DNA of 64,000 nt, from sequence record OL964735.1. One strand, 5' to 3'. Position 1 is the stretch's first letter, and every line of letters starts with the position of its first letter. The position numbers were made by a program, and so were the translations under genes. Below the pieces are notes generated by a model that was given only the letters and a program-made list of their open reading frames with translations, had not been told where the DNA came from and did no database searches. Positions 13,171-20,918 of this stretch are shown piece by piece. The stretch is from Escherichia phage T4.

Positions 13171-13328
13171 GTCCCATCTCCATATCAATTAAGTCATTTA
13201 TCGTTGGTTCATTATACACCGTTTCTTCATCAGTGTAAACCGGTTCTTCCGGCTCTGGCTCTACAGTTTCCCATCTAGCCGCCCACCAAGGTTTTATAGC
13301 GTAATCCATTCTCGTACTGTCTGAGTTA

Positions 13329-13514
13329 CTACACGTTCTCGAAGCTCAACCAGTTCAACCGATATTGGCATTTACCATCTTGCACCCAGTCTTCTATTTC
13401 GATAGGTTTAAGATAGTCGGAAAAATCGAAATCATAGTTTTCCGAAAATGCATCATGGTCTTCAATGATTTCGCTCAGAACTGCATCAACATCTAATTTA
13501 TTTTCAATATTCAT
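13329..13514 (-). CDS. hypothetical small acidic protein
   Basis: ORF track. Confidence 0.35.
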   Translation of the reverse strand: MNIENKLDVDAVLSEIIEDHDAFSENYDFDFSDYLKPIEIEDWVQDGKCQYRLNWLSFENV

Positions 13515-13717
13515 TTTTCACACCACCAACTGCTTACTTCAAAATCGGGTTCGCCATGTTCCCAGAACCAGGGGCCGATAGGAATCCACTTACCTTCATC
13601 GGTGACGTCATATTCTTCGGATTTAGCTAACCAAATCATGTATTCATAGAGTTTATATTCCAGGTCGCCTTCTGTTCCATCGCCTAGAAAAATAATTTGT
13701 TCATTTAATTCTATCAT
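13511..13717 (-). CDS. hypothetical small acidic protein
   Basis: ORF track; overlapping stop/start with neighbours. Confidence 0.4.
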   Translation of the reverse strand: MIELNEQIIFLGDGTEGDLEYKLYEYMIWLAKSEEYDVTDEGKWIPIGPWFWEHGEPDFEVSSWWCEK

Positions 13718-13977
13718 TTAAAGTATTCCCGCAATTGGTCAAATCCACCAATATGACTTCCATCAGGAGCAAATACCTGAGGCATTGTTAAGCCGATTTG
13801 AGTATCACGACCTAGTTTAGTCAGAAGCTCAGCAATTTTCTCATCATCAAAAACACCTTTTTCCGGCATAATGTTGATAAATTCAAACGGCTGTTTCTTC
13901 ACAGTCAAAAGACGTTTTGCATTATCGCAATACACACATTTATGAATGTTGCTATCATAACCATATACTTTAAACAT
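13714..13977 (-). CDS. nrdC: Thioredoxin/glutaredoxin NrdC
   Basis: 87 aa; active-site CVYC near N-terminus. Confidence 0.85.
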   Translation of the reverse strand: MFKVYGYDSNIHKCVYCDNAKRLLTVKKQPFEFINIMPEKGVFDDEKIAELLTKLGRDTQIGLTMPQVFAPDGSHIGGFDQLREYFK

Positions 13978-14221: not shown

Positions 14222-14522
14222 TTTCTTCTCGGTCAAATCGGTGTTTACAATGGCGACATTTATAACGAAGATTATTAGTCTGCCAATGGACCAATTGCAC
14301 CTGTTCAGTTCCACATTCAGGGCAATTAGGAACGTTTTTAGAAGCCCTTTCGCGACGTTCAACCATGACCATTACAGAATCCCAATTAACAGGAGGGCTA
14401 TAATCATCACAACCATAAATCTTTCCACGCATTTCCAGATCGTCTTCTTCACCAGCCATAATAATTTTAATTAGACTAGAATTACTTGAAGCTGCAATGT
14501 CTTCTAATAGACGCTTTTTCAT
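14208..14522 (-). CDS. hypothetical protein with C-terminal zinc ribbon
   Basis: 104 aa; CPECG...CRHCKH. Confidence 0.45.
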
Positions 14523-15445
14523 TTCAATACCTCAATAGCATTACGTAAACCATTTGCTTTGGCGGTTAAATCCTTAAGAACTTTAGTATGCTCTTCAATC
14601 TGTTTTTCAACTTCAATCAAACGGGTACTGAGATATTCGCGTTCTTCTTTCATAGTATCATTCCCATGATTGGGCTTTGGCGTAGGTTTAAATTTATTAG
14701 GGTCCTTTAACTTAATAACAACTTTAGTTTCAAACAGTGAAAGACCATAATTCGTATTATCATCAAAGGATTCAACTACGTCCATTTTAGACAATAACGT
14801 ACGAAGATTATAAGTCAAAGAACGAATCGTTTTATTATGTTTATTAGCTTCACATGGTTTCATATATGGAAGATTTTTATATATTTCATGCGGAGCACAA
14901 ACAATAATTAACAATTCAAATGGTCCATTCTGTGATGATGGAATGAATTTAGCCGTAACCCAATCTTTTACATTTACATTAATAGTACGATCATCGCCAT
15001 GACAAAACAGTCTACGAGAATGCTTAAAAAGCATATTCACATTATTATTAAATTCGTGTGAAAACTCACTGGCAAATTTTTCTTTACTATCTTTAGAAAA
15101 CCATTCTTCTAAATAAGTTCTTTTCACGTCGTTAATAATATTAAATGTAACAACATTATCATTTGATACATTAGTCTCAATGTAGCTTGGATACATAAAT
15201 TTTTTAACATTATTAACAGCTATCACAGAAGATAGTAATCGGGAACGTTTGAACCACTCGAGCAAAGAACCAAGAGAATGTGAATACGCATTTTGTGTAT
15301 CTTTACAAATATGGTTTTCCCATCCAATATAGTCTAAAAAATCACGAAGAATATTATTGATTACTTCTCTATGTCCTTTCTGATAATCACGATGTTTAGT
15401 AATAAGACTGTCAAAATAATCAATATAATGTTTACGAGTTTTCAT
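14519..15445 (-). CDS. hypothetical protein, member 1 of a 4-gene tandem paralog array with C-terminal coiled coil
   Basis: 308 aa; N-terminus MKTRKHYIDYF; heptad-like C-terminus [31 protein letters not shown]. Confidence 0.5.
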   Translation of the reverse strand: MKTRKHYIDYFDSLITKHRDYQKGHREVINNILRDFLDYIGWENHICKDTQNAYSHSLGSLLEWFKRSRLLSSVIAVNNVKKFMYPSYIETNVSNDNVVTFNIINDVKRTYLEEWFSKDSKEKFASEFSHEFNNNVNMLFKHSRRLFCHGDDRTINVNVKDWVTAKFIPSSQNGPFELLIIVCAPHEIYKNLPYMKPCEANKHNKTIRSLTYNLRTLLSKMDVVESFDDNTNYGLSLFETKVVIKLKDPNKFKPTPKPNHGNDTMKEEREYLSTRLIEVEKQIEEHTKVLKDLTAKANGLRNAIEVLK

Positions 15446-15499
15446 GTTCTTCTCACTTGGTTAATGATTTATACTCCGAGCCATCCTTGGCTTTAAATT

Positions 15500-16501
15500 T
15501 TACTTAATTAACTGCAAAGCTTGTTCTAGACGATCAAGACGATTAACGGATTCTTCCCAAATCTTTTTAGCCTGCTCATATTCTTTCTGCGCTTTATTAG
15601 AAATTTCTAGAACTTCTTTATAAGCTTTTTCTAGTGCAATAACTTCTGGACGAATTTCTATCGGTTCAGGTGAATCATCAAGACATTCCATTAGTTCCTC
15701 AAGGGTAGTTTCTTCTTTAGGAGTATTCACAATTTCATCACATTTTTGTTGGTAAATTTCTTTACTAGTAGGTGAATAAGCACATTTCACTTCACGAAGG
15801 CTAATTACGAGTTTATATCCTTCCCAACCGCATATATTCTTAAAAGGATATGTATGAATATTTTCTACTGTTTCCATACAAAGTAATGCGGTCTCTAATT
15901 GACGAGTTATAGTGCTAGCAATTGAGAAAAATTTATTAATATTCTTTTGGTTAGTTTCTGGTGTAAAAAATCCATAATTCACAAAAATAGATACTTTATT
16001 TTTATCAAGTTCATATTCTTTTATGATAATCATATCAGAAGCCAAAGGATGAATTTGACGATAATCGCCATAACATAATTTAGAAGCTGATTTTAGAATT
16101 TGCTTCTTGAAAAGTCTGAAATTACTAATCCAACGACGAGTAAAAATATTCTCAGGGTCTTCTTTATTATTGAGATGATAAGAATTAACATCACCGAACC
16201 AATTATATCCTACTACATCTTTAGTTCGTTTAATTTCTTTCCCAAAATTACCAAGAATATCCCGATTAACCAAATATGAAAGAAGACGAGACTCTTTAAA
16301 GGTTTTCTTGATAACATCTTTATCTACACGGCTAGAAATTTTACGAATTTCATGAATAAATTTAGTAGAAGAAACAATACTTGCATCAACACTATTGAGC
16401 CACTGATTGATAATAGAAAGAACGCTATTTTGGCCAAACATCGGTATAGCTTTATCATCAATAACGCTATTGAATGATTTGATATATTCGTTACGAGTCA
16501 T
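15500..16501 (-). CDS. hypothetical protein, paralog 2 of coiled-coil array
   Basis: Start moved to ATG at 16501 (MTRNEYIKSF) behind GAGGAG and promoter-like element; internal block RRWISNFRLFKKQILKSASKL resembles paralog 3. Confidence 0.5.
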   Translation of the reverse strand: MTRNEYIKSFNSVIDDKAIPMFGQNSVLSIINQWLNSVDASIVSSTKFIHEIRKISSRVDKDVIKKTFKESRLLSYLVNRDILGNFGKEIKRTKDVVGYNWFGDVNSYHLNNKEDPENIFTRRWISNFRLFKKQILKSASKLCYGDYRQIHPLASDMIIIKEYELDKNKVSIFVNYGFFTPETNQKNINKFFSIASTITRQLETALLCMETVENIHTYPFKNICGWEGYKLVISLREVKCAYSPTSKEIYQQKCDEIVNTPKEETTLEELMECLDDSPEPIEIRPEVIALEKAYKEVLEISNKAQKEYEQAKKIWEESVNRLDRLEQALQLIK

Positions 16502-16529
16502 ATTAATCTCCTCAGTAGAAAGTAAGAAC

Positions 16530-16559
16530 ATTATACCACATCCTTGTGGCAAAGTAAAC
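16530..16559 (-). promoter_or_regulatory. Early promoter, minus strand, driving coiled-coil paralog 2
   Basis: GTTTAC -35, 18-bp spacer, TGTGGTATAAT -10, then GAGGAG and ATG. Confidence 0.55.
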
Positions 16560-17581
16560 TAGTTCAGTGCATTTAGTGCATTGTTCAGTTTAGAACGTTG
16601 CTTTGTCAGATTTTGAACCCTTGACTGAGCTTGTTCTAACGCCTTTTCAGCTTCTAGCACTTCATTGGTCGCTTTAACTAATTCAGCATCTACTGCCTTA
16701 AGAGACTTCTCAATCGCATCCGCGTGCCATTTTTCAACAGGTTTAAGACTTGGATTTTCAACAGGAAGAAAATTCACTTTATTGAATTTCCATGCATCTT
16801 TATTACCTGAGCTATACATCCAAAATTTAGGATCGTTTGATAAGTAATTAGATAAATTTAAGTTATCTTGCACTTCTTGCTTTTTCTCTTGTGTGACTTC
16901 GTCCTTTCTCAAAAATTCATATTTAAATGAAACGATCATATCAAGTTCATATGATGTTGTATCTAACTTAAATCGTTCAAAACGAGGTAAAATCTTAGAT
17001 TGAACAGCAGCAACAACATCCATATACTTAAATGCTTCTGTCAACTGCGATTTAAGGCATTCGCAAATTGAAAGAGAATTTTTTGTATTAGGTTTAAAGC
17101 TAATTCGTGCAGTTCTATTATTTTCTTTTAACGGTCTTACTTCCATCTGAAGAGTATAACCATCAAATTTCAGATTCTTTAAGTTAATGTCAGAGCCTTT
17201 TAATCGACTAGCAGTAGACAAAATTTGCTTTAATTGTCTACGGAACAGAGCAATAAATCTCCATTCAATACGATAATGATTTGGATTGAAAAATCCAGAT
17301 GATAAATCGACCTTACTTTGACCAACGCCTTGAACAAATAGAGGATTTTTATAATCAATAGTTTTACAGAAATCGGTGAGCTGTTCACGAGCAGTCATTT
17401 GAGTAATATACCCTGCTTTACTAAAATTACGCACCCATTCACTGCTATTCGTATACTTAAAGTGATGAATAACACGATTAACTTTATCAGGGTCTAAATT
17501 ATTTTCACACAAAAATGTCATAACATCACGAGTATAGCTGGCATTACGAACCATATCTTCAATTTGAGAACGAGTTTTCAT
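16559..17581 (-). CDS. hypothetical protein, paralog 3 of coiled-coil array
   Basis: 340 aa; MKTRSQIEDM N-terminus; block YRIEWRFIALFRRQLKQILSTASRLKG; C-terminal coiled coil. Confidence 0.5.
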   Translation of the reverse strand: MKTRSQIEDMVRNASYTRDVMTFLCENNLDPDKVNRVIHHFKYTNSSEWVRNFSKAGYITQMTAREQLTDFCKTIDYKNPLFVQGVGQSKVDLSSGFFNPNHYRIEWRFIALFRRQLKQILSTASRLKGSDINLKNLKFDGYTLQMEVRPLKENNRTARISFKPNTKNSLSICECLKSQLTEAFKYMDVVAAVQSKILPRFERFKLDTTSYELDMIVSFKYEFLRKDEVTQEKKQEVQDNLNLSNYLSNDPKFWMYSSGNKDAWKFNKVNFLPVENPSLKPVEKWHADAIEKSLKAVDAELVKATNEVLEAEKALEQAQSRVQNLTKQRSKLNNALNALN

Positions 17582-17589
17582 GGTGTTCC

Positions 17590-18504
17590 TTAAGATTTAA
17601 GTAAATCAACAATTTTAATTAACTTTTCACGCTCAGATTTAGCTTTACTACTCAATCCAGATAGTCTGAAAATTTCATCATCATATTGTTGAATAGAAAT
17701 ATTCAGCTCTTCAATTTGCTTATTAAAATAATCAATTTGTTCAGAATGTTTTTCGTTACTACGAACTGGTACAGGTTTTGTAGGCAATTTAGTTGAACTG
17801 GATTCATTCGGGCGATAAATTAAAATGCAATTTGAACCAATCGGGCATTTAGCACCAGATGAATATTCTAACGTTCCAGCTTCTTTTAAAACTTCAAAAG
17901 CTAAACAGAGATGATGCCCCATATTAACATAATCAGTAGAGCGAGCTCTGATGTAATAATCATCTCCACGAGTGCTAAATTTAAAGCATTTAAGGTCTTC
18001 TGTATTATTAGTTTTAAAAATCATTTGTTTATCTAGACCTTTAGCCAATCGAGCACCTAATGCTAATAATCGTCGTTGATTTTCCCACAAATCTGCGATC
18101 ATTTGGTCAAATGATAATTTCGGCATTAGCCGACCATAAAGGTCATATCCTTTATTATAATTGCGAAGGATTTCACTCGCATTAATACGAGACAACGCTC
18201 CAATTTTATTAAGGGCTTTCATAATACGATTAGATAAACTCATTCCAGACCCGTTTGTTCGCTGTAAATGTTTTTCTAATCCAAATCCAATATCAACTTT
18301 AAATTTATCTAAAATTTCAGCATGAACATCTCTGTCAATAACATTCAAATCCAAAGTTGGGTTAAATCTATGAAAAAATTTATCTGGCTCTCCACGACGT
18401 AAAACAGTCCATTCATTCATCATTTTTTTATTAACTAAAGATTTAATTACTGCGTTGACATTATTAATTACTACTGACATATTTTCCTCACTCAATTTTA
18501 CCAA
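17590..18504 (-). CDS. hypothetical protein, paralog 4 of coiled-coil array
   Basis: 304 aa; C-terminal coiled coil EQIDYFNKQIEELNISIQQYDDEIFRL. Confidence 0.45.
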   Translation of the reverse strand: MVKLSEENMSVVINNVNAVIKSLVNKKMMNEWTVLRRGEPDKFFHRFNPTLDLNVIDRDVHAEILDKFKVDIGFGLEKHLQRTNGSGMSLSNRIMKALNKIGALSRINASEILRNYNKGYDLYGRLMPKLSFDQMIADLWENQRRLLALGARLAKGLDKQMIFKTNNTEDLKCFKFSTRGDDYYIRARSTDYVNMGHHLCLAFEVLKEAGTLEYSSGAKCPIGSNCILIYRPNESSSTKLPTKPVPVRSNEKHSEQIDYFNKQIEELNISIQQYDDEIFRLSGLSSKAKSEREKLIKIVDLLKS

Positions 18505-18889
18505 TTACGCGGAATAAGATTGAACAGACTATATAAGTACCACATATAGATTGAACTAATGCCATTCCAAAGAACCAAACAATATTATCAAACCATGTCT
18601 GTTTTACGTCGAAAGGACGTAAACTTACAGTAATATTATCACCTTTTTCTATTGAAGAATACATCTCTGGGGAAATATATTCACTAAATCTATAACCGTC
18701 TTTGAGTTCATATACAGCAATAAACGATAAACTAGACCCCTTTCCTTGAGTTCCTGTAAGGGTATTAACTACAGTAACATCATAATCTTTATAATGCATA
18801 TAATCATTAATTGCGTAATAACCATATGCAATTACTATACATAAACAACATATCAATAAATTCAATCTTTTAATTATCAACTGTTTCAT
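18488..18889 (-). CDS. hypothetical membrane protein
   Basis: 133 aa; N-terminal TM helix (LLICCLCIVIAYGYYAI) and C-terminal hydrophobic segment. Confidence 0.45.
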   Translation of the reverse strand: MKQLIIKRLNLLICCLCIVIAYGYYAINDYMHYKDYDVTVVNTLTGTQGKGSSLSFIAVYELKDGYRFSEYISPEMYSSIEKGDNITVSLRPFDVKQTWFDNIVWFFGMALVQSICGTYIVCSILFRVIGKIE

Positions 18890-18944
18890 AATAATCTCAA
18901 TTAAAAGGGCTTAGAACCATTATACCATCCTTGGTATAAAGCGG

Positions 18945-19472
18945 TTATGCGAGTACCGTATTTAACCGTTCTTCAAACTTCCGAAGAGTGTTCTGGCGTT
19001 CAGCTCTTTGCTTTTTGTAAGTTTCAATACGCTCTGAAATGAGAGTGTATCGTTCATTTACTGATTCTTTCATAAAATCAGGAATTTCACGAGAAGCTTT
19101 AATCTCGTCAAATTTATCAATAACAGCTTGCTCTTCAGCAATTAAGTTATCATACATCAAAATATCTTTCTTGATGAACTCAATATCTTCTTGAGTTACA
19201 CGAGATAATTTAGATGCTTTATCCTTTTTGTACTGTTCGTTAGTATCACGAGACCAGTGTAATGTACGATTTTTATTCGTATTCTTGTAAATTTCTACAA
19301 TACCAATCTCATCGATAATAACGATCCAATTCCAACGGGATTTGTAAATTTGTCCTCCATTAACAGTGATTTCACCTCCGATTGAGATGTCATTAAAGAA
19401 CTTGCTTTGTGCTTCTGATTTAAATTTACCATCGTTGTAATTTACCAGGTTGAAAATATCTTTAGCGTTCAT
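18945..19472 (-). CDS. hypothetical coiled-coil protein
   Basis: Start moved to ATG at 19472 (MNAKDIFN) behind GGAGGAA; the track start lies inside the promoter-like element. Confidence 0.45.
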   Translation of the reverse strand: MNAKDIFNLVNYNDGKFKSEAQSKFFNDISIGGEITVNGGQIYKSRWNWIVIIDEIGIVEIYKNTNKNRTLHWSRDTNEQYKKDKASKLSRVTQEDIEFIKKDILMYDNLIAEEQAVIDKFDEIKASREIPDFMKESVNERYTLISERIETYKKQRAERQNTLRKFEERLNTVLA

Positions 19473-19937: not shown

Positions 19938-20918
19938 TTATTTCAGAAGAGTAACCGTAGCGATTTCTTCCCAACCGTTTTTGTCGGTCATAATAAAGTC
20001 AGCAAGATAAAGTGCAGTACGCAGTGAAACATTACGTAAACGGTTAACATTGACTTTCATCCATGATAATGCTTTATAAGTTTCTTCATCAGAAAGACCA
20101 CGCTTTTGCATCATGTCGGTTGAAAGAATAACATCTTCAACCCTGACCATAATTTCTTCATTAGTGTGAACACCCAAATCCAAATAAACTGAGCGGGACA
20201 CTAATGCTTGTAAATGTGGAGCAAGTTTAGTACCACGGTCTAATTCGCGGTCAATGTCAACGTTTGTGATAAAAACAATTGTTCCTTTAAATTCAAACTC
20301 ACGCTCAATGCCTTTTTCTTCTAAGTAAGAAGATGCAGTGCTCCAGCAGACTTTACGGGTCTCTCCAGTGTCCAGAGCAGCTTTCAGAAGATTAAGAATG
20401 TCCATATCAGAGAAAACATCCACATCATCAATCAAAAGGACAGAATTCTCTTCACGATTATTCCAAAGCTGTTCATAAAGACCGATACCAGAGATTTTAC
20501 CGTTAATGCTTTTATACTCAATGTATCCAATATCATTTGCTTTATTCAAAGCTTTATCTAAAGAATATGTTTTACCAATACCCGCCGCACCAGAGATAAT
20601 TAATGAACGAATATTTCCGTTAATAATACCATTCGTCATCATTCCCATAACATTAAATCTTTTATTAATGCGGGTTTTCATATCTTCATATGATTCTTTA
20701 ACTTCTTCAACTTTTACACCATCATATGAAATGTCTGATTTGTAAACCCAAACACCGCGACGTTTACCGTCAATTTCAACAAAAACTTTACCATCTCCTT
20801 GTGCATCTACCGGAGCATTATCAGGGAACCATTCACCTAAGAGCTCAAAAGTTCCAGAGATTTCTTTACCGAAGTAGATACCCTTATTGATAGTTACAGT
20901 TTTCATTTTATTCTCCAA
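19938..20918 (-). CDS. P-loop NTPase (AAA-like ATPase)
   Basis: 326 aa; Walker A GAAGIGKT and Walker B-like LLIDDVD; preceded by promoter-like element at 20939-20970. Confidence 0.55.
   Translation of the reverse strand: MENKMKTVTINKGIYFGKEISGTFELLGEWFPDNAPVDAQGDGKVFVEIDGKRRGVWVYKSDISYDGVKVEEVKESYEDMKTRINKRFNVMGMMTNGIINGNIRSLIISGAAGIGKTYSLDKALNKANDIGYIEYKSINGKISGIGLYEQLWNNREENSVLLIDDVDVFSDMDILNLLKAALDTGETRKVCWSTASSYLEEKGIEREFEFKGTIVFITNVDIDRELDRGTKLAPHLQALVSRSVYLDLGVHTNEEIMVRVEDVILSTDMMQKRGLSDEETYKALSWMKVNVNRLRNVSLRTALYLADFIMTDKNGWEEIATVTLLK

Follow-up and report, generated by a model that had tools for sequence, protein, structure and literature searches.

Dsr1 is a SIR2-domain protein, a SIR2 NADase thought to deplete NAD+, whose sensor, common to Avs7, recognises a phage major capsid protein (that of Drexlerviridae; PMC13581612). 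In the passages on nrdC, Dsr1, ECOR17 and evo 3 of the study that introduced its phage antagonist (Srikant, Guegler & Laub, eLife 2022; PMC9391042), a T4 clone with compensatory deletions is unable to infect ECOR17, deletion of dsr1 from ECOR17 restores infection, plasmid-borne dsr1 protects MG1655, and expression of the phage gene nrdC.5 rescues the plating of the T4 deletion clone on MG1655 carrying the ECOR17 dsr1. These passages present nrdC.5 as an early, non-essential gene that restores infection of dsr1-carrying Escherichia coli, and treat it as a single uncharacterised gene; its mechanism, architecture and family do not appear in them, nor do nrdC.3, nrdC.4 and nrdC.6. Here, we analyse the array formed by these four genes in a stretch of 64,000 nucleotides from Escherichia phage T4 (sequence record OL964735.1; in the following, the window), where the open reading frame (ORF) at 16559–17581 is the same gene as the nrdC.5 of Srikant et al., and suggest that the four may constitute an old and diversified family of inhibitors of host immune proteins.

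Several other described systems invite comparison. DSAD1, an inhibitor of DSR2 from SPbeta-type phages (PMC10973363, PMC11087589), likewise neutralises a defence-associated sirtuin NADase with a virion-protein sensor, and the DSAD1–DSR2 pair is the natural mechanistic model for a direct binding by NrdC.5; a test for similarity to DSAD1 in sequence or fold gave none. Within T4 itself, the dmd-tifA-adfA 'anti-TA island', the anti-OLD protein gp49.2, IPI and IPIII are likewise early or injected, dispensable, host-range-determining and located in accessory regions, but they are unrelated small proteins without a paralogue family, and no sequence relationship to nrdC.3–nrdC.6 was seen. Only about 1 kb separates the gp49.2 gene from the array and, since its T6 homologue inhibits OLD defence, the region carries other counter-defence genes. 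Finally, the databases already hold the four proteins themselves, as three separate families: in Pfam these are the families of unknown function PF26897 (nrdC.3/4), DUF7235 (PF23882; nrdC.5) and PF26899 (nrdC.6), and in PHROGs they are phrog_1435 (nrdC.3 and nrdC.4), phrog_2351 (nrdC.5) and phrog_2257 (nrdC.6). The annotation of the genes and the counter-defence phenotype of nrdC.5 are therefore already known, while we found no description of the union of the three families, of their shared architecture, of a single-copy ancestral arrangement or of nrdC.3, nrdC.4 and nrdC.6 as counter-defence candidates.

The 4.6 kb around the array match phage T4 at 100% identity (T4T as well as several records of T4), and RefSeq T4 at 99.9%. 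The RefSeq annotation supplies the names of the four minus-strand ORFs, which are 100% identical to T4 nrdC.3, nrdC.4, nrdC.5 and nrdC.6. The array is flanked by nrdC.2 and by nrdC.7, a small membrane-protein gene, and lies within the nrdC–mobD accessory block. It comprises, all on the minus strand, nrdC.3 (14519–15445; 308 aa, identical to T4 nrdC.3; phrog_1435 with E 8e-101), nrdC.4 (15500–16501; 333 aa; phrog_1435 with E 6e-168 and PF26897 precomputed on homologues), the published anti-Dsr1 gene nrdC.5 (16559–17581; 340 aa; 420.6 bits against DUF7235, for which the gathering cut-off is 30) and nrdC.6, the most divergent member (17590–18480; 296 aa; precomputed match to PF26899). AlphaFold2 models are available for the latter two. 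The four consecutive ORFs of the original prediction are thus recovered, three of them at the same length, and only the start of nrdC.6 had to be moved, from a TTG at 18504 to what is most likely its true start, the ATG at 18480. This ATG is preceded by a GAGGAAA Shine-Dalgarno sequence, and the homologues all begin with MSQAIN or MSVVIN; the TTG is without a Shine-Dalgarno sequence and overlaps nrdC.7. A Shine-Dalgarno sequence is present for each of the four genes (GAGGAG in the case of nrdC.4). In RefSeq T4, nrdC.6 (locus L001, 7353–8180) is annotated with 275 aa, without the C-terminal helix found in the window and in its relatives (296 aa), because of a 1-nt difference from the window.

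On the evidence of profile comparisons, nrdC.3, nrdC.4 and nrdC.5 are related beyond compositional bias. BLASTP between all pairs of the four proteins yields a single significant match, nrdC.3–nrdC.4, with 24% identity over 271 aa (E 0.002); the other pairs are insignificant, and beyond nrdC.3–nrdC.4 the method is too insensitive to serve as a test of the whole family. By hhalign, 256 columns of the nrdC.3/4 profile align collinearly with the nrdC.5 profile (83.8% probability, E 7.8e-6), and with richer alignments, to which Mosigvirus, Dhakavirus and Marfavirus-type members were added, the match rises to 97.3% (E 1.9e-11). It also holds when the coiled coil is left out (93.5%, E 2.3e-7, 148 columns), while the best reversed-profile control in the comparisons among the four reaches E 0.0085. 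All-against-all comparison thus upheld the proposed paralogy of these three beyond composition. The same is true of the MKTR-type N-terminus said to be common to three of the four proteins: in the motif M(K)TR..I, residues T3, R4 and I7 are invariant across the nrdC.3/4/5 families, and the motif is not found in nrdC.6.

Other searches stayed within subfamilies. Word-indexed homologue searches gave matches confined to each subfamily and no link between them, a search for related loci with nrdC.4 gave only five near-identical ones, and nrdC.3, nrdC.4 and nrdC.6 have no match to the DUF7235 (PF23882) model. An exhaustive HMMER search of 1.84 billion representatives with the nrdC.3/4 profile produced only 10 matches, among which was the Marfavirus-type member P0233, and neither nrdC.5 nor nrdC.6.

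nrdC.6 is probably a true homologue of the other three, to which it is joined by a bridging family and by structure, namely by the order of its elements and by four common fold matches. The bridge is a single protein of 335–338 aa, encoded beside nrdC.2 in phages of the genus Kanagawavirus (IME523, CIP9, Kosakonia 305, PEi26). With the profile of nrdC.3/4, that of the bridge aligns in the N-terminal half at 95.4% probability (E 1.8e-8), and with that of nrdC.6 from the helix pair to the C-terminus at 93.5% (E 2.2e-7). Both alignments agree in register at the helix-pair motif, and the reversed controls have E-values of at least 0.15. The match to nrdC.3/4 is kept without the coiled coil (87.9%, E 3.2e-6), and a single bridge protein, IME523 gp085, reaches about 27 bits with the hidden Markov model of every one of the three families. 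On the structural side, the nrdC.6 model matches the Kanagawavirus bridge protein in BFVD with E 1.6e-8.

All four proteins have the same order of parts: a helical N-terminus comes first, then a conserved helix pair and a ββαββ unit, and a disordered linker leads to an amphipathic heptad helix of about 50 residues at the C-terminus, the order of the elements being read from the AlphaFold2 models (DSSP) of nrdC.5 and nrdC.6 only. In nrdC.5, the N-terminal helices are followed by the helix pair at residues 105–128, the ββαββ unit at 145–219, the linker at 224–280 and the C-terminal helix at 281–339; in nrdC.6, the corresponding positions are 124–145, 166–222, 227–241 and 242–295. The linkers, of variable length, have low confidence in the models and are read as disordered. 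The helix pair, where the profile alignments register, corresponds to the internal 'basic block' that the original prediction had noticed, and this block proved to be real and present in all four proteins: FSHEFNNNVNMLFKHSRRLFCHGD in nrdC.3 (14993..15064, minus strand; aa 128–151), WISNFRLFKKQILKSASKLCYGD in nrdC.4 (16064..16132, minus strand; aa 124–146), FIALFRRQLKQILSTASRLKGSD in nrdC.5 (17189..17257, minus strand; aa 109–131) and MIADLWENQRRLLALGARLAKGLD in nrdC.6 (18031..18102, minus strand; aa 127–150). The first two were placed by alignment; in the models of the last two, the helices span residues 105–115 and 117–128 of nrdC.5, and 124–133 and 135–145 of nrdC.6.

The heptad-like coiled coil that was expected at each C-terminus is likewise present. 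Within the C-terminal 49 residues, the fraction of heptad a and d positions occupied by hydrophobic residues is 0.79 in nrdC.3, 0.79 in nrdC.4, 0.93 in nrdC.5 and 0.86 in nrdC.6, values that were reached by 6, 28, 0 and 1 of 5000 shuffles, respectively. For nrdC.5 (16562..16741, minus strand; aa 281–340) and nrdC.6 (17596..17757, minus strand; aa 242–295), the AlphaFold2 models show single helices in agreement with the heptad test, and for nrdC.3 (14522..14650, minus strand; about aa 266–308) and nrdC.4 (15503..15649, minus strand; about aa 285–333) the approximate boundaries come from the heptad tests, with no model. The helices also end alike: the motif L..A[LI]..LK, a pattern derived post hoc, occurs in 4 of the 135 window ORFs of at least 60 aa, which are exactly nrdC.3–nrdC.6. 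Across the families, this pattern reads L-x-x-A/I-[LIM]-x-x-L-K, with LLRAIQALK and LLHAMQELRK as examples from relatives.

Searched against the predicted viral structures of BFVD, the models of nrdC.5 and nrdC.6 have four targets in common, all of them full-length and uncharacterised proteins that other T4-like phages encode. These come from Klebsiella phage Mineola (E 7e-5 with the nrdC.6 model and 1e-8 with that of nrdC.5), Erwinia phage Cronus (3.5e-5 and 1.8e-8), Pectobacterium phage PM2 (8.7e-8 and 8.6e-7) and Serratia phage PS2 (1.5e-3 and 1.8e-4). The nrdC.5 model additionally has weak partial matches (E 0.009–0.04) to tail-completion, tail-terminator and head-tail connector proteins, which may be noise from the ββαββ fold or, as virion proteins are what sensors of the Dsr1 type detect, a hint of mimicry. 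No functional domain was found above threshold in Pfam, NCBIfam and PADLOC, where the only matches were weak ones to coiled coils, and no solved fold in the PDB matched. The thioredoxin or glutaredoxin label borne by GenBank homologues finds no counterpart in the proteins, as there is no Pfam or NCBIfam match to either domain and no CxxC in the translations; the 'thioredoxin' label on many nrdC.3–nrdC.11 homologues was apparently propagated from the 'nrdC.x' gene names.

A tblastn search of 50,697 phage records detected nrdC.6 most often (741 records), followed by nrdC.3 (653), nrdC.5 (581) and nrdC.4 (553). The matches carry, almost without exception, the names of enterobacterial phages, and each record inspected is T4-like; the family was found only in T4-like phages, that is, in the Straboviridae genera examined and in Marfavirus, whose record places it outside any family. 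Unexpected host labels also occur: some near-identical family proteins are listed under Enterococcus faecalis and Bacillus cereus, and some phages with about 95% identity to T4 are labelled 'Pseudomonas phages'. An expanded and diverging family had been postulated, and the comparison across genomes agrees with this both in the profile links and in copy numbers that differ between T4-like genera. T4 has four genes, Mosigvirus JK36 has three (nrdC.6-, nrdC.5- and nrdC.3-like), Dhakavirus Bp7 has three (nrdC.6-, nrdC.5- and nrdC.4-like), and Gaprivervirus SP18 carries the Bp7 set, with the nrdC.5-like gene split in two. Kanagawavirus and Marfavirus have one copy, adjoining nrdC.2. As orthologues of each paralogue occur in several genera, the pattern indicates that the duplications are old and that the paralogues have been stably kept, rather than representing a recent burst in copy number. 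In the split gene of Shigella phage SP18 (locus L007, 6038–6942), one ORF has 170 aa and the other 125 aa; both match nrdC.5 by phmmer at E ~1e-11, and the split points either to a pseudogene or to an error in the sequencing.

Pairwise ratios of non-synonymous to synonymous substitution (dN/dS), computed for each T4 gene against each Tequatrovirus orthologue, lie between 0.04 and 0.33 overall, barring two outliers: mostly 0.16–0.29 for nrdC.3, nrdC.4 and nrdC.5, and 0.04–0.16 for nrdC.6. For comparison, endonuclease VII (gp49) has values of at most 0.02 and nrdC.10 of at most 0.09. These values indicate that the array is under purifying selection, with three of its genes evolving several-fold faster than their neighbours. 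One outlier is a near-identical nrdC.3 pair (0.82 at a dS of 0.019), with too few changes to interpret; in the other (0.56), a hybrid ORF of phage Manna, which is not a true orthologue, was wrongly paired with nrdC.4. Within Tequatrovirus, nrdC.3 occurs in two deeply diverged allele classes, one of at least 89% identity (about 139 records) and one of about 60% (several hundred records), for which dS is saturated near 1.1 (orthologues in loci L005, L006 and L009 compared); the flanking nrdC.6 is 95–99% identical across most Tequatrovirus records.

As judged from its present-day sequence variants, the array recombines. Salmonella phage Manna (locus L009, 6215–7252) has an in-frame hybrid in which residues 1–270 of nrdC.6 are joined to residues 251–333 of nrdC.4; the junction is a DEI microhomology, also seen as DNA repeat D3. 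A second in-frame hybrid, P0056, joins residues 146–272 of nrdC.5 to residues 134–308 of nrdC.3, and the nrdC.6 of Shigella phage Sf25 has an internal duplication of 82 residues (aa 177–259). The DNA repeats of the region itself are microhomologies of 14–23 nt only.

The early and accessory character that the original prediction ascribed to these genes agrees with published data. In the supplement of PMC9697503, the RNA of all four is early and all four proteins are detected, those of nrdC.3, nrdC.4 and nrdC.6 likewise as early and that of nrdC.5 as middle; the nrdC.1–6 block is dispensable on laboratory E. coli, being among the large pieces that genome-reduced T4 has lost while remaining viable (PMC9825161). 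The designation as unnamed and of unknown function is outdated for nrdC.5, which is named in T4, as are the other three, and is the published anti-Dsr1 gene. As to the suggested counter-defence role, it stands for nrdC.5, on the plating rescue on dsr1-carrying cells in the quoted passages (PMC9391042), and would extend to nrdC.3, nrdC.4 and nrdC.6 by their relationship to it. Since nrdC.5 has been published as a gene that overcomes Dsr1, these three become testable counter-defence candidates.

We therefore propose, with about an even chance of being right, that the products of nrdC.3–nrdC.6, members of an old and diversified coiled-coil family, inhibit host immune proteins. Such inhibitors would be pre-loaded, being made early in infection, and would block their immune protein before the late proteins that trigger its sensor appear. 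The fast-diverging globular head would pick the target: NrdC.5 would act on Dsr1, and NrdC.3, NrdC.4 and NrdC.6 would be directed at other immune proteins. The tail, a conserved coiled coil at the C-terminus, might in turn oligomerise the inhibitor and thereby enable multivalent binding to oligomeric immune complexes, or it might serve as a shared docking element. By analogy with DSAD1 and DSR2, NrdC.5 would bind Dsr1 directly. A more far-reaching version of this proposal, which we regard as speculative and rather doubtful, envisages a retargetable inhibitor scaffold: the coiled-coil tail would provide oligomerisation or docking, the head would have been re-specified, time and again, against different capsid-detecting sensors of the Dsr1/Avs7 type, four heads would cover the diversity of receptors in T4, and new specificities would arise from natural head/tail hybrids such as the nrdC.6–nrdC.4 fusion of Manna.

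A number of observations weigh against the proposal, and some of them favour other explanations. Where the relationship of the genes is concerned, direct profile comparison links nrdC.6 only weakly to nrdC.3/4 (E 0.0015) and to nrdC.5 (E 0.035), values near noise, with reversed-profile controls of the same comparisons reaching E 0.0085, and without the coiled coil the match between the bridge and nrdC.6 covers 33 columns only (E 7.4e-5). The models are of moderate confidence (AlphaFold2 pLDDT 67.5 for nrdC.5 and 76.1 for nrdC.6), and the TM-scores to the shared BFVD targets are low (0.3–0.48, with large root-mean-square deviations), probably because the long C-terminal helix orients freely or differently. 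It is nevertheless extremely improbable that the similarity within the array as a whole is a product of chance or of composition, that is, of AT-rich coding sequence and coiled coils. While most pairwise BLAST comparisons are indeed insignificant and coiled coils inflate scores, the alignments are collinear and full-length, they keep their significance without the coiled coil, and the reversed profiles fail to reproduce them; for nrdC.3, nrdC.4 and nrdC.5, E-values of 1.9e-11 and, without the coiled coil, 2.3e-7 rule this explanation out. More specific is the idea that nrdC.6 is unrelated and that its layout, a globular domain followed by a coiled coil at the C-terminus, arose by convergence; the array would then hold three paralogues and not four. 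The separate families of nrdC.6 in Pfam and PHROGs and its lack of the M(K)TR N-terminus are in line with this, as are its near-noise direct comparisons. However, even these direct alignments are collinear and register on the helix-pair motif, the bridging family matches both nrdC.6 and nrdC.3/4 with the same register there, and the secondary-structure order is identical in the nrdC.5 and nrdC.6 models, which share four full-length fold targets at E 1e-8 to 1e-3. Together with the common C-terminal end motif (post hoc as it is) and an adjacent, syntenic position, this makes convergence distinctly improbable.

Where function is concerned, paralogues that are 10–25% identical can differ wholly in what they do, the gene-wide dN/dS below 1 gives no arms-race signature at the whole-gene level, and our literature search found neither a phenotype for nrdC.3, nrdC.4 and nrdC.6 nor published biochemistry of NrdC.5–Dsr1 binding, the published result being one of genetic complementation only. 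It also found no later work on the mechanism of NrdC.5 and none on its paralogues. Counter-defence might hence be confined to NrdC.5, with NrdC.3, NrdC.4 and NrdC.6 using the same scaffold in another early role, for instance in taking over the host, in competing with other phages, or in niche-specific metabolism or regulation. The wide divergence of the paralogues, the absence of a defence phenotype for the three from the literature we found, and the slow evolution of nrdC.6, which with its low dN/dS and its 95–99% identity in most Tequatrovirus records is unlike a typical arms-race gene, would all accord with this. Yet the three match a proven counter-defence gene in architecture, timing, dispensability and location, another such gene (49.2) lies nearby, and Pfam, NCBIfam, PADLOC and the PDB offer no alternative functional domain for any of the four, so that we think this restriction rather unlikely. 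NrdC.5 could also counter Dsr1 indirectly, by masking or delaying the phage trigger or by buffering the loss of NAD+. Genetic rescue, the evidence on NrdC.5 and Dsr1 in the passages cited, is compatible with such a route, the Dsr1 sensor recognises a major capsid protein (PMC13581612), and the nrdC.5 model has the weak tail-protein and connector matches described above. Against it, nrdC.5 alone suffices for the rescue when expressed from a plasmid (again in these passages; PMC9391042), and no enzyme-like domain or similarity to NAD pathways was found in NrdC.5. The timing of NrdC.5 (early RNA, middle protein), which precedes the bulk of late capsid synthesis, fits both models, of which direct binding needs no extra partner. 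We consider an indirect action unlikely.

The transcription of the array was approached through consensus scans. A promoter-like site upstream of nrdC.4 (16530..16558, minus strand) consists of TTTACT, a spacer of 17 and TATAAT, with an upstream TG, and resembles a T4 early promoter. Another lies upstream of nrdC.7 (18873..18900, minus strand) and may serve nrdC.7, nrdC.6 and nrdC.5, which are separated by gaps of 7–8 nt and, to judge from this spacing, are possibly co-transcribed from it. The number of such sites in the region is no higher than in shuffled sequence, and these promoter calls are therefore only suggestive. No Rfam match to an RNA element was found in the region.

Among the neighbouring genes, nrdC.8 (18945–19472; 175 aa) was considered as a fifth member of the family and rejected: it shows no profile similarity, the heptad occupancy of its helical C-terminus is a weak 0.64 (reached by 165 of 5000 shuffles), and the nrdC.5 model has one weak fold match in this direction, to a 175-aa protein of Klebsiella phage KPV15 (E 2.9e-4). 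A 2026 paper on DRT1 places nrdC.8 among 'nucleotide reductases'; our domain searches found no reductase domain in it. nrdC.10 (19938–20918; 326 aa) has weak, sub-threshold matches to P-loop NTPases of the AAA/STAND type (AAA_14, nSTAND3) and to clamp-loader PHROGs. On the other side of the array, in the 49.1–49.3 genes at 13250–13760, the window is missing stretches of about 100 and 91 bp relative to RefSeq T4, inside 49.2 and 49.3, with junctions near 13360 and 13615–13626; neither gap is a multiple of three. In this region, all 15 of the 15 best-matching T4-type records listed align in three pieces, over a span of 713 bases in place of 511. The gaps may stem from a strain variant or from an editing of the window.

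If the proposed family is accepted, nrdC.3, nrdC.4 and nrdC.6, long-standing orphans of the best-studied phage, would gain a paralogue with a proven action against Dsr1, and with it a hypothesis that is directly testable. The merged family, with members from several T4-like genera, would provide a larger alignment for the study of how NrdC.5 blocks a SIR2 NADase, to which its natural variants, namely the single-copy ancestors, the two allele classes of nrdC.3 and the in-frame hybrids, would be a useful complement. Moreover, should the heads prove to be target-specific, the family could be used as bait for new host immune proteins.

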